Below are positions 11,334-50,630 of a stretch of 64,000 bases of DNA, piece by piece. The stretch lies in assembly GCA_965223425.1 (NCBI GenBank), contig OZ245003.1, forward strand, positions 1,248,001 to 1,312,000, in the 5' to 3' direction. The notes under the pieces are model-generated. The model was not told the origin of the DNA. It saw nothing but the letters and a program-made list of their open reading frames with translations, and ran no database searches. A program made the position numbers and the translations under genes. Each line of letters opens with the position of its first letter. Position 1 is the first letter of the stretch. This DNA comes from Nitrosopumilus sp. (GTDB taxonomy: Archaea > Thermoproteota > Nitrososphaeria > Nitrososphaerales > Nitrosopumilaceae).

Positions 11334-11612
11334 TTATTGTTTTTCAATAATTTTGTTTTCTGGAATTGAACTAATATAATTCACCAGGCTTCTATAATAT
11401 TTCAAATGAAAGCCCAAATCTCTTATTTCTGTTTGCTTTAACTCTTCTAACTCAGGTCCAAAATCCCTTCTGTCTGTTTGAATCTGGTTTAGTACACCTT
11501 CATTCACTTCAATCATGTGAAATAGACTGTGCAGCACTTCGCCTTTTGTGAGCGTGTTATCGCATGATTTTTTTAGCAACGTTTCAATCCAATCCATGTT
11601 TATTGAATTCAA
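11334..11612 (-). CDS. hypothetical protein
   Basis: 92-aa ORF; the true start may be MDWIET. Confidence 0.6.
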   Translation of the reverse strand: MNSINMDWIETLLKKSCDNTLTKGEVLHSLFHMIEVNEGVLNQIQTDRRDFGPELEELKQTEIRDLGFHLKYYRSLVNYISSIPENKIIEKQ

Positions 11613-11683
11613 AGTTGTTATATCCAGACCTGAATTTGATAAATTCTGACCTTTACTCTATTTTTTTTAGTTTAGGCTTACAA

Positions 11684-11815
11684 TTATTTTCTTGATGCCC
11701 GTTTTTTTCGGTTCATAATTTCCTTGTTTCTTTCTACATCTGAATGAACTTCTACATGTTCGTATAGCTGTTCTTTTGAATCAAACATCTGTTCACAGTA
11801 ATAACATTGATGCAT
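11684..11815 (-). CDS. Small C2H2 zinc-finger protein (43 aa)
   Basis: MHQCYYCEQMFDSKEQLYEHVEVHSD...; canonical CxxC-x3-F-x5-L-x2-H-x3-H. Confidence 0.75.
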   Translation of the reverse strand: MHQCYYCEQMFDSKEQLYEHVEVHSDVERNKEIMNRKKRASRK

Positions 11816-11837
11816 TTTATAATTACGTCAATCTTAG

Positions 11838-12030
11838 ATTAATTACTTTCTGTATTGGGTTCTGTGAAGTTATCGGGAGTTAACCCCTATAACTCGACTT
11901 TGACATATCGACTATTCGGATTACCGATGGTGTGCCGGATTCCGTCATCGCCGGCTCAAAAGTGCCGGACTGCGCTTCACATATGTCATCTCTACTGCCC
12001 CTAAACCTAGGGGGCAGCTTGCGTGATATG
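11838..12030 (-). ncRNA. Predicted TnpB omegaRNA (scaffold about 12030..11858 plus about 20-nt guide from flanking DNA)
   Basis: Stems CUGCCCC/GGGGCAG (11995-12017), UGACAUAU/AUAUGUCA (11981-11988 with 11901-11908), CCGGC/GCCGG (11951-11968), terminal hairpin 11868-11894; loop GGUUU can pair with the terminal GAACC; position matches the known tnpB 3'/right-end overlap. Confidence 0.6.
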
Positions 12031-13148
12031 TTGTTCATGGCAGCGACAATATCCCTGTCCATAAACAAACCGCAATTATTACACGACAGTTTACGATGCT
12101 GTTGCATGTCCTCTTGGAGTCTCTTTCCGCATTGCGGACACTGCGTGCTCGTGTTTCTTGGGTCTACTGTCTCGACTGGTGGGAGCCCGACCCATCGGGC
12201 TTTGTATTCTATTTGGCGTTGCAGCTCGTAGAATTGCCACCCGTTCAATCTGCGCCTGTACTTGTTGCCTTGACTGTTTCCTTTTCGGTACAATTTTCTT
12301 ATTCCTTTCAGGTTTTCCATGACGATTGCAGTCTTGTTTTTGACTGCGTTGTCTACTATATCCTTTGAGATTCTGTGGATGTACTGCCTTGCTCTGTCAG
12401 TCAGTCTTCTCTGTCTTTCCTTGCAGAACTGATTTTTCTTCCTGCGGTCATTTCTGTGGAAGCCTGCCCTGGCGTGTACTGTGTTCTCCTTTATGGATAA
12501 CAGTTTGTTTGTCTTGCAGACTGTCACCCCTTCCTTGTTCCCACACGTCACATTTCTTAGGTTTCTGTCTATTCCAACTTTCTTGGTGCACTCTATCTCT
12601 TGTACTTTTTTTGAAACACAAAGACTGATGTTGAGGGCAGTCAGTGAAAACGAGCGCACCGTCAGGGCGGGATCAGACAGGATTTTTTGGGTGTGATCGT
12701 TGAGTAAGATGTTGATTGGGTTATGCTTCTTGTATGGGATTGTTAGTAGTGCACCGTTGTGTTTTATGCCGTAACAGTTTGTCATAAAGGGATTTTTGAC
12801 TATTGGGTCTCTTATTCGGACACCTCGTTTGACTGATTGTTTTCTGTTTGATAATGTGCCTGCAGCTCTTGATATTGCACATATCTTGTATGACGATAAA
12901 ATGTCATAGTTACGCAATTCATGACAACATAACATGGACAGCCTCTTCATATCGTGAGTGTCTTCTTTCAACCCTATCTTGATGCAATGATTGGCCATCT
13001 TTGTGAATGTAGCCGCCATATCCATTAGGTCAGAGTTCGGCGCATATTTCTGTGATATTGGCTTTATCGCCTTCAGCGAATATCTTGCGGTTTGGAGGCT
13101 TGTACATTTTGGGAATTGACATGTAACTCCCGATAACTTCACAGAACC
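11858..13148 (-). mobile_element. Non-autonomous TIR-bounded element carrying only tnpB
   Basis: Perfect 25-bp TIR ggttctgtgaagttatcgggagtta (11858-11882 / 13124-13148); 8-bp direct repeat ctgtattg on both flanks (11850-11857, 13149-13156). Confidence 0.92.
11880..13142 (-). CDS. tnpB: RNA-guided endonuclease TnpB (IS200/IS605 OrfB family)
   Basis: RuvC-I VGIDRN, RuvC-II IVMENL, zinc ribbon CPQCG..CNNCG, RuvC-III MDRDIVAAMN, all catalytic residues present; the true start is probably internal (first ATG at 13025). Confidence 0.95.
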   Translation of the reverse strand: MKLSGVTCQFPKCTSLQTARYSLKAIKPISQKYAPNSDLMDMAATFTKMANHCIKIGLKEDTHDMKRLSMLCCHELRNYDILSSYKICAISRAAGTLSNRKQSVKRGVRIRDPIVKNPFMTNCYGIKHNGALLTIPYKKHNPINILLNDHTQKILSDPALTVRSFSLTALNISLCVSKKVQEIECTKKVGIDRNLRNVTCGNKEGVTVCKTNKLLSIKENTVHARAGFHRNDRRKKNQFCKERQRRLTDRARQYIHRISKDIVDNAVKNKTAIVMENLKGIRKLYRKGNSQGNKYRRRLNGWQFYELQRQIEYKARWVGLPPVETVDPRNTSTQCPQCGKRLQEDMQQHRKLSCNNCGLFMDRDIVAAMNNISRKLPPRFRGSRDDICEAQSGTFEPAMTESGTPSVIRIVDMSKSSYRG

Positions 13149-13190
13149 CTGTATTGTATGAAAAATTTGTTCCTGTATTCTGTTAAACGT

Positions 13191-13529
13191 TCATGAAGTT
13201 TCTAACTCAATTTCGAAATTACATATGGGCAGCTTGCCTGATTCGTTTTTGAACTGTTCTATTAGTTGAAGCTGACGCTCTTTTGGACTGCCTGTAAATT
13301 CTCTTTGGTATGATTGAGTTTTCTGCTTGCATTCATTTCCTTCAAAATTGGTATCTACATATTTTGTAAATATTTTTTCTAGATTATTTGATTCACCAAC
13401 ATATATTGCCTCTTTTTGTCTGTTGTATAATACGTATACTCCTGGAATTGGTTTAACGAATTTAGCGCTCTCGAGCCAAACCCTCATTTTATCATCAAGT
13501 AGCTGCTGCATACTTGAAGATATTTTCAC
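13191..13529 (-). CDS. GIY-YIG nuclease-like protein
   Basis: PGVYVLYN...IYVGESNNL motif. Confidence 0.8.
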   Translation of the reverse strand: MKISSSMQQLLDDKMRVWLESAKFVKPIPGVYVLYNRQKEAIYVGESNNLEKIFTKYVDTNFEGNECKQKTQSYQREFTGSPKERQLQLIEQFKNESGKLPICNFEIELETS

Positions 13530-50113: not shown

Positions 50114-50150
50114 AGTTTGAACTTATCTTGTTTCAAAAATTAGAATAAAA

Positions 50151-50630
50151 ATCAACGGTGAGCAGAATTATTTGTTTGCAAGTATGGATGATGATGCAGG
50201 ATACTGGCTGGCTAGTGATAGTGCAGACAACAGGTTCCAGCACAATGCAGACAATCTGCCATCCATGACAAAACTACGGGCTGGAAAGAATCCAAGAAAT
50301 TTCACCACTGACGGTTTTTTTTATCTTACATGAAATCCTCCAAGAAGGTTTTTGGAAAAAAAATCAATCATGTCAGACACATTCATCTCAAAGGTTATGT
50401 GAATAACAACAAAATGGAGAGGCTGAGCGGTAAAATTCTAGATCGTGAAAAGGTTTTCAATGGATTAAAGAAGATGGATGCGGCAATACTTGATGGATGA
50501 AAGTTTATTACAATTTCATTAAAAAACACGGTTCATTAAAGGGCAGACCCCTGCAGAGGCCTCGCTTGTTGAGGTAGATGGGGTTAACAAGTGGAAAGCT
50601 ATCACCCAAAACGCTTTACTTAACAAAGAT
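50151..50630 (+). pseudogene. IS6-like DDE transposase remnant (C-terminal half, several frameshifts)
   Basis: NYLFASMDDD, TDG, RHIHLKG, NNNKMERL, YYNFIKKH, TPAEA fragments across frames. Confidence 0.7.

Follow-up and report, generated by a model that had tools for sequence, protein, structure and literature searches.

In a 64,000-nucleotide stretch of a Nitrosopumilus sp. genome (contig OZ245003.1, positions 1,248,001 to 1,312,000; hereafter the window), a 1291-bp element on the minus strand is probably a non-autonomous transposon with IS6-type ends whose sole cargo would be a TnpB nuclease and its guide RNA, or omegaRNA. Every duplication-bearing copy of this element family, 48 of 48 in 12 genomes, lies directly behind a T followed by A or G, always on the 5' side of tnpB, and this T-A/G motif would be the target-adjacent motif (TAM) of the nuclease. 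The architecture of the element is well supported, and its function is proposed. That TnpBs can be linked to DDE transposases, and that Fanzors reside in repeat-ended transposons, was already known; what appears to be new is the association of IS6-type ends with a strict, one-sided motif upstream of a target duplication of non-specific sequence.

Two genomes were scanned in full: that of the window (2.64 Mb in two contigs), which holds about 14 full-length or near-full-length copies plus fragments, most with an 8-bp duplication of their own, and a sister genome, the 2.21-Mb Nitrosopumilus sp. assembly OZ240211.1. The motif was scored at the bases that immediately precede the duplication on the tnpB 5' side, and a duplication was accepted when at least 7 of its 8 bases matched. 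Between them the two genomes contain 57 RNA-bearing elements with an identifiable left end, 37 of which carry the duplication, or 38 with the inclusion of a 208-bp element whose RNA scaffold is recognised by nhmmer. All 38 have T at position -2 and either A or G at position -1, the upstream triplets being TTG (16), TTA (13), ATA (5), ATG (3) and CTA (1); among the 37 tabulated copies, position -3 is T 28 times and A 8 times. Five short RNA-only derivatives (208-497 bp) also follow the rule. So do all ten further duplication-bearing elements from ten other genomes, at protein identities down to 43% (TTG and TTA three times each, CTA twice, ATG and GTA once each), bringing the total to the 48 copies noted above. 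Where the duplication has been lost, the motif still stands at the left junction in 16 of 20 copies. A set of 23 relative loci comprised 8 with ends and duplication, 6 with ends and no duplication (4 of them with the motif), and 9 at which no ends were found. The logo of upstream bases that the first-pass annotation of this DNA had proposed thus proved strict and orientation-bound, and its placement of the TAM within TTCATA agrees with the window copy, which carries ATA, a minor variant, at that position and directly against the duplication.

The motif belongs to the target and is not brought by the element, because it is present in empty sites. For several insertions the orthologous site in the other genome is unoccupied and contains the 8 bp only once, just after TTA or TTG, as in CTTA-TTATAGAT-TCAATGC and ATTTA-CGAGATTG; no empty-site joints were reported in the contigs of four sequencing runs, one of them from an RNA library. 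A symmetric target preference was rejected on the right-side triplets, since at the mirror position on the other side of the insertion T-A/G occurs in 6 of 37 copies, the background frequency of the motif being 0.13-0.146 genome-wide and 0.157 within the same flanks. Moreover, the motif goes with the RNA and not with IS6-type insertion as such, because scaffold-less siblings lack the bias: among 13 IS6-type elements that have repeats and duplications and no scaffold (transposase-bearing and miniature, split ten to three between the two genomes), T-A/G is found on 5 of 26 sides, compared with 38 of 38 RNA-bearing copies (Fisher p = 1.6e-12). For the six transposase-bearing controls alone the count is 1 of 12 sides. 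The duplications share no common sequence, although C is the first base in 14 of 37, and the twelve bases upstream of them are 70-100% A+T, such that the preferred context may be longer than three bases. Two other explanations of the motif were discarded. A promoter role, with a TATA box in the flank driving transcription from a start at T-A/G, is ruled out by the distribution of TATA-like words upstream of the 37 sites, where 13 matches are scattered with no preferred distance, and the idea that it supplies a start codon fails because the TTG at -11 lies in a different frame from the GTG of tnpB and soon meets a TGA stop.

The RNA with which the motif is associated is a predicted omegaRNA scaffold of about 160 nt that overlaps the 3' end of tnpB (Table 1). 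The minus-strand stems, terminal hairpin and stop codon within the repeat that the first-pass annotation described are all present in the sequence, and folding of positions 11858-12030 with RNAfold recovers the predicted stems at -54.8 kcal/mol (z = -2.59), a stability reached by 3 of 200 shuffles. This single-sequence support is modest, and the strength of the prediction derives from homologues. In a MAFFT alignment of 46 distinct homologous ends, a block from CAARCUG to GUCAAAGUC is conserved in all subfamilies and is followed by a tail of variable length and then by the repeat. The 31 base pairs counted, which comprise the helices of the earlier annotation and an additional CGGA/UCCG helix, can form in 95.4% of 1411 cells (shuffled mean 87.3%); 16 of the 31 have changed on both sides (123 cells), and none of 500 shuffles reaches any of five measures. 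Controls in which the partner was slid along the alignment give 30-44% pairing and at most 23 cells changed on both sides. The covariation is spread over four helices, with 6 of 7 pairs changed on both sides in stem 1 and 3, 5 and 1 such pairs in helices 3, 4 and 5. Stem 1 runs through the series CUGCCCC/GGGGCAG, CUGUCCC/GGGAUAG and CUGUCUC/GAGAUAG, with GCGUGG/CCAUGC in distant relatives, and its compensatory changes are non-synonymous codon changes in tnpB; that they compensate in spite of altering amino acids points to selection on the RNA. These data support a conserved, covarying RNA-like structure, predicted from DNA, in the last ~160 nt of the element at the 3' end of tnpB.

Whether the terminal repeat itself forms part of this RNA was addressed with folds of the tail, from GUCAAAGUC to the last base, in every distinct subfamily. 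In most of them the bases that follow GUCAAA find their pairing partner in the inner right repeat, creating a terminal hairpin with apical inserts of 0-70 nt and leaving the last six bases, AGAACC, unpaired. This design persists across divergent inner repeats (GAAGUUAUCGGGAG, CAAGUUAUAGGCACC, UUGGGUUAACGGGUG, GUAAUCUUCGGGUG, UUGCAUUCACGAGUGG and others). When the repeat was kept and the upstream arm shuffled (mononucleotide shuffles, 21 representatives), 11 of the 21 real arms bound their repeat better than shuffled ones did (p < 0.05); the combined p by Fisher's method, 4e-8, is overstated by the relatedness of the representatives. Several results weigh against a hairpin built from the repeat: it is not significant in the other 10 of the 21 representatives; one of these, L111 (p = 0.71), has a run of seven Ts before the repeat that could terminate archaeal transcription; and cognate arm/repeat duplexes from 14 subfamilies are only marginally more stable than swapped ones (-9.36 versus -8.03 kcal/mol, permutation p = 0.035), in a comparison that is weak because many subfamilies have ATAACTT in common. 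The proposal that the repeat doubles as the 3' scaffold of the omegaRNA thus finds support in most of the family, from folds and arm shuffles, and not in every subfamily.

The palindrome at the right end invites an explanation at the level of DNA. In this view the transposase, acting on these particular ends, would itself have an asymmetric preference for its target, the palindrome would be an additional site for transposase binding or regulation, and TnpB and its RNA would have no part in the choice or retention of sites. We consider this very unlikely. Several pairs of the terminal hairpins are G-U, and are thus mismatches in DNA or on the opposite strand; complete IS6-type and RNA-less short elements in the same genomes are unbiased; the tnpB reading frame is intact in 41 of 45 copies; and the T-A/G motif resembles the T-rich TAMs and protospacer-adjacent motifs of TnpB and Cas12f. 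Each right end does hold an imperfect inverted copy of its own repeat that could bind transposase and make the two ends unequal, and archaeal IS6-like elements are described as mechanistically unstudied and possibly a separate family (PMC6807381).

The first-pass annotation further proposed that a GGUUU loop of stem 1 pairs with the terminal GAACC, in keeping with the pseudoknot that prokaryotic omegaRNAs close with their 3' end (review PMC13565253). Among the 46 aligned ends the loop is GGUUU in 43 and GAUUU in three, and the terminal GAACC is nearly invariant in the close family; distant relatives carry the loop GGUUC, the perfect complement of GAACC. Four variants of the terminal five bases are all compatible with their own loops (GGCUC/GAGCC, GGCUC/GGGCC, GGUUC/GAGCC and UGUUC/GAACA). 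In a second alignment that includes more distant relatives, pairing is possible in 97.7% of 215 pseudoknot cells, and changes on both sides are seen for two of the five pairs, some of the changes being wobble-compatible. Two compensatory events stand against three uncompensated ones, and the latter tell against the pairing, namely GAUUU/GAACC in L079, L112 and L121 and UGUUC/GAACC in L222 and L231, of which L222 has perfect ends and a perfect duplication and looks like an intact mobile copy. We take the pseudoknot to be compatible with the data, with limited positive covariation that falls short of proof and three lineages departing from it. As a separate observation, loci L225 and L229, from two genomes of another family in the class, have decayed left ends, changed terminal bases (GAGCC, GGGCC) and a loop changed to the matching GGCUC; these are apparently orthologous old copies that may have been immobilised and yet retained the RNA fold.

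A structured RNA that extends no further than the terminal hairpin, or stops short of it, with the hairpin forming or stabilising the 3' end of the tnpB transcript and the guide derived from somewhere other than the flank, as might be the case for a recruited TnpB, is highly improbable. The long AU-rich linkers of some subfamilies, and the seven-T run between scaffold and repeat in one, would be in keeping with such an arrangement, and domesticated TnpBs exist (PMC10705468). It leaves unexplained, however, the TAM-like motif placed exactly against the duplication, the conserved free AGAACC beside a complementary loop, and multi-copy mobility with site-specific flanks.

The protein encoded by the element matches the Pfam family Cas12f1-like_TNB (PF07282, E = 5.3e-20) and aligns by phmmer with Cas12f and TnpB chains of the PDB over the RuvC-II glutamate, a CxxC...CxxC zinc finger and the RuvC-III aspartate. 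Its stop codon, TAA (11882-11880), is made of the first three bases of the right repeat. In the two genomes scanned in full, 41 of 45 full-length copies retain an open reading frame (ORF) of at least 380 amino acids, and 38 also show three RuvC-like motif patterns, which are self-made and crude. A scan of the genome collection returned relatives at 30 loci, 27 of them in the sister genome at 66-92% protein identity. The scaffold was found by DNA search in 7 of 401 genomes sampled within the family, and TnpB relatives at E <= 1e-20 in 66 of 401 sampled within the class, a tally that includes four unpublished genomes, none of which underlies any claim made here. In a metagenome collection, a protein scan gave 49 pattern matches, none confirmed, and a 20-nt scaffold pattern gave one match, within an unrelated coding region. 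Relatives in other genera, at 42-63% protein identity, keep the GGTTCTGT...ACAGAACC ends and 8-bp duplications. This conservation of the architecture, down to 42% protein identity, rules out that tnpB became nested by accident within an insertion sequence (IS), a possibility against which the first-pass annotation had argued; TnpB and these ends have been paired family-wide and anciently.

The ends themselves are of IS6 type. The left and right 25-bp repeats are perfect inverted complements whose first eight bases, GGTTCTGT, are identical to the start of the IS6/IS26 consensus GGTTCTGTTGCAAA, and both the consensus, which starts GGTTCTG, and the 8-bp length of the duplication are documented for that family (PMC6807381). 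No transposase gene was found within the element by the ORF list and Pfam, the single long ORF being tnpB. The genome of the window encodes IS6-type transposases elsewhere (Pfam DDE_Tnp_IS240, E = 1.8e-11), as does the sister genome, and it holds many other elements, large and miniature, with GGTTCTGT ends. In the sister genome a complete 1970-bp IS, which encodes an intact transposase of about 390 amino acids between perfect 26-bp repeats and is flanked by an 8-bp duplication, has the first 18 repeat bases in common with one tnpB subfamily. Because the element lacks a transposase of its own, and IS6-type transposases are encoded elsewhere, it is a non-autonomous IS6-type derivative, presumably mobilised in trans. 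The bacterial IS6/IS26 elements are described as moving by copy-in, without excision (PMC6807381).

These features together suggest how the element would operate. The RNA would be transcribed through the right repeat, its last hairpin would be built from the inner repeat, and the final GAACC would pair with the loop of stem 1. The guide would then be the flanking DNA, that is, the 8-bp duplication and the next 8-12 nt or so. In the window copy the upstream flank reads TTTTCATA followed by CAATACAG, and the 20 nt downstream of the element are CAATACAGAAAGTAATTAAT. The TAM of known TnpB and Cas12 systems lies immediately next to the target. Since the motif abuts the duplication on its 5' side, the target, and hence the guide, would begin with the duplication; the guide predicted in the first-pass annotation, which starts with the duplicated bases, is consistent with this placement. 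The ribonucleoprotein would recognise TTR plus duplication plus downstream sequence, a combination present only in the empty site. The filled site would escape, as that annotation also anticipated, because ACC stands ahead of the right junction and the match to the guide at the left junction extends over 8 nt only. The element's last bases, ACC, are never the motif, which fits such immunity, and self-cleavage would not be expected.

Why every RNA-bearing copy should lie behind the motif admits of two readings. The one that we tentatively favour is that IS6-type insertion is itself unbiased, and that copies adjacent to a TAM gain either TnpB-driven copying into empty alleles or protection from loss, such that only TAM-adjacent insertions would reach a frequency at which they get assembled. 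Such a filter would, in addition, account for the excess of RNA-bearing elements over their siblings, 38 versus 13. In the other, which we regard as possible and on balance doubtful, insertion is directed: TnpB and its omegaRNA, at or near the right end, would bind the TAM of the target, and the IS6-type transposase would join the 3'-OH of the right end directly 3' of it, with the guide uninvolved in the choice of site and the bias present from the moment of insertion. The position of the motif speaks for direction, as it lies in all 48 copies exactly at the top-strand phosphate joined to the right end, whereas the position attacked by the left end has it in 6 of 37. Because both repeats are identical over 25 bp, this asymmetry must stem from a right-end-specific feature, and it is at the right end that the RNA is encoded. 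The 5 of 26 sides counted for RNA-less siblings also accord with directed insertion, and the persistence of motif-less IS6-type elements means that a survival filter would need great strength to leave no exception among 48. To our knowledge, however, no TnpB recruits a transposase; the element holds one ORF, with no fused or adjacent adaptor gene; and the short RNA-only elements would need TnpB in trans at the transpososome. Nor are there young copies that could show a bias at time zero, as nearest-neighbour identity among the copies of the two genomes is at most 99.47%.

The filter, and with it the assignment of a nuclease, guide and TAM, has its own difficulties. RNA-less IS6-type elements persist without the motif, and yet there are no RNA-bearing exceptions; copy-in transposition of the IS6/IS26 kind leaves no excised donor to restore; and Nitrosopumilus is not known to be highly polyploid. 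With no copies closer than 99.5%, insertion bias and later selection are inseparable. The strict part of the motif is two bases only, which is short for a TAM, the scaffold and the guide are predicted from DNA, and a search of positions 11500-13500 against Rfam (E-value mode) returned no omegaRNA family, the sole match being a chance one to a long non-coding RNA (E = 0.3).

Comparison with known systems places the element between several of them. With the TnpB-omegaRNA systems of IS200/IS605, such as ISDra2 and the tnpB-only IS1341 group, it has in common a TnpB with RuvC and zinc-finger motifs and a structured RNA that overlaps the 3' end of tnpB up to the element's right end. Those systems are described as having a 3' pseudoknot in the scaffold, a flank-derived guide and a position 3' of a T-rich TAM, and as having neither terminal inverted repeats nor a target duplication, the Y1 transposase TnpA itself selecting the TAM (PMC13565253). 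In contrast to IS200/IS605, including the IS1341 group, with their subterminal hairpins read by Y1 TnpA, the present element ends in perfect 25-bp repeats and is flanked by an 8-bp duplication whose bases would occupy positions 1-8 of the guide, and no TAM-reading partner is known. The DDE-linked branches of TnpB offer a different likeness, in inverted repeats, in a tnpB 3' end near the element end, and in solo TnpBs with transposase-type ends. For these, Altae-Tran et al. 2023 (PMC10691335) report symmetrical inverted terminal repeats, a distance of less than 250 bp from the 3' end of tnpB to a transposon end, and solo TnpBs flanked by ends like those of transposase-bearing relatives, the main text naming only IS630; a 2026 review (PMC13565253) lists ISL2, IS630 and IS1031 and calls the association of OMEGA systems with DDE transposases generally weak. 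An association of TnpB with IS6, Thaumarchaeota or Nitrosopumilus was not found in the literature searched, the supplementary branch lists of PMC10691335 lying outside its scope, and that TnpB literature likewise made no mention of IS6-type ends, of Thaumarchaeota or of a motif that precedes an 8-bp duplication of non-specific sequence.

Fanzor, a eukaryotic RNA-guided relative of TnpB, is found in cut-and-paste DDE transposons with inverted repeats and duplications, and its RNA runs through the end of the transposon; the 5' duplication, which is sequence-specific (TA or TTAA), is part of the TAM, and the 3' duplication lies in the scaffold (PMC13565253). Here, unlike in Fanzor, the duplication varies and the motif lies upstream of it, so that the duplication cannot be the TAM and would instead be part of the guide. 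With the IS6/IS26 family the element shares the GGTTCTG repeat start, the 8-bp duplication and a DDE_Tnp_IS240 transposase in the same genomes; it differs from an IS6 insertion sequence proper in having no transposase, and no cargo besides tnpB. Type V-K CRISPR-associated transposons, in which a relative of Cas12 (Cas12k) chooses the insertion site of a DDE transposon, are relevant only to the reading in which insertion is directed. Unlike in Type V-K, no TniQ- or TnsC-like adaptor is present here, the nuclease motifs are intact, and insertion is at the TAM and not tens of base pairs past the guide match.

Among the TnpB systems covered by the literature consulted, it is the partner transposase (Y1 or serine) that picks the TAM, so that nuclease and transposase agree by design. 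Here the partner is of DDE type, the 8-bp duplication is non-specific and siblings moved by an enzyme of that kind show no motif, and yet every RNA-bearing copy follows T-A/G, always in the same orientation. The nuclease would either be a very efficient filter of insertions, serving a non-excising transposon as a gene drive or a means of retention, or join in the choice of site. There is some chance, though not a good one, that a TnpB-omegaRNA complex at the right end reads the TAM and so dictates the site and orientation of a DDE insertion, or, in a milder form, that TnpB acts as an absolute filter on fixation. Were insertion directed in this way, the element would be a natural, guide-independent and nuclease-competent forerunner of CRISPR-associated transposition. 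Both readings bear on the role of TnpB for DDE transposons and on the first coupling of RNA-guided nucleases to transposition, and the compactness of the system (1.3 kb, one protein of about 400 amino acids), with its many natural guide/target pairs, makes these questions directly testable.

Table 1. Features of the tnpB element and its predicted RNA. Positions are those of the window unless a contig prefix is given.
Feature	Position	Strand	Remarks
Whole non-autonomous element, IS6-type ends, tnpB sole gene	11858..13148	-	1291 bp; boundaries from ~14 same-genome copies
Left terminal inverted repeat GGTTCTGTGAAGTTATCGGGAGTTA	13124..13148	-	25 bp; first 8 bases = IS6/IS26 consensus GGTTCTGTTGCAAA
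Right terminal inverted repeat TAACTCCCGATAACTTCACAGAACC	11858..11882	-	25 bp; includes tnpB stop and 3' arm of terminal hairpin
Left copy of 8-bp target duplication CAATACAG	13149..13156	-	read from sequence
Right copy of duplication CAATACAG	11850..11857	-	predicted first 8 guide nt, from position of TAM-like motif
TAM-like motif	13157..13159	-	directly 5' of duplication, ATA in window copy; T at -2 and A/G at -1 in 48/48 duplication-bearing copies
Predicted 20-nt guide template CAATACAGAAAGTAATTAAT	11838..11857	-	putative; length nominal
tnpB ORF	11880..13142	-	420 codons from GTG inside left repeat (start uncertain); Pfam Cas12f1-like_TNB
Predicted omegaRNA scaffold	11858..12017	-	~160 nt, overlaps tnpB 3' end; covariation in the 46-end alignment
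Stem 1 CUGCCCC (12017-12011) / GGGGCAG (12001-11995)	11995..12017	-	loop CUAGGUUUA; GGUUU = 12007-12003
Long-range stem UGACAUAU (11988-11981) / AUAUGUCA (11908-11901)	11901..11988	-	covariation
Inner helix CCGGC (11968-11964) / GCCGG (11955-11951)	11951..11968	-	enclosed by long-range stem
Inner helix CGGA/UCCG	11944-11917	-	enclosed by long-range stem
Terminal hairpin AGUUAU-A-GGGG-UUAA-CUCC-CG-AUAACU	11864..11898	-	5' arm after conserved GUCAAA; 3' arm = inner right repeat
Unpaired 3' tail AGAACC	11858..11863	-	GAACC = proposed pseudoknot partner of GGUUU; free in most folds
Miniature derivatives	C1:1199933-1200276; sister genome G320:143852-144348, 803351-803738, 870887-871264, 1385894-1386101		

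The five miniature derivatives, 208-497 bp in length, have kept both repeats and the RNA scaffold and have lost tnpB; their duplications are intact and are preceded by TTG or TTA. Their make-up is that of hitchhikers with the guide RNA only, which would depend on TnpB supplied in trans. Other copies bear signs of rearrangement. The tnpB copies at C1:1325308-1326598 (+) and C1:1451399-1452689 (-) lie in opposite orientation and have swapped duplications, TAGAAACT and TTATGTTA, which fits a ~126-kb inversion through recombination between them. The copies at C1:654737-656024 and C1:783913-785206 begin with ACGTCTGTG rather than GGTTCTGTG and have about 40 nt of upstream flank in common, such that either the left end is chimeric or the copies are nested within a larger repeat. 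The tnpB copies at C1:594234-596770 and C1:2292571-2294969 are each interrupted by a further insert of ~1.1-1.25 kb.

Several IS6-type elements and fragments other than the tnpB family were also noted. Inside the window, at ~50136-50627 (C1:1298136-1298627), lies a fragment related to IS6-type transposases, with 43% identity over 173 amino acids by tblastn. Outside it, a 6853-bp element at C1:1201385-1208237 (L021 1886-8738) has IS6-type repeats and the duplication CATTATTC, and nests two IS630-like genes (DDE_3), an IS110 fragment, an IS4/IS5-like DDE gene and a methylase-HNH fragment. A 2983-bp IS6-type element at C1:915423-918405, with the duplication CAATAGAG, encodes an intact transposase and a second ORF with a DPPF motif that, judged by eye, looks like a DNA methyltransferase passenger. 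Just upstream of the tnpB insertion in the window, and outside the element, an ORF of 112 amino acids at 13191-13529 (minus strand) encodes a GIY-YIG nuclease domain (Pfam E = 4.9e-05).

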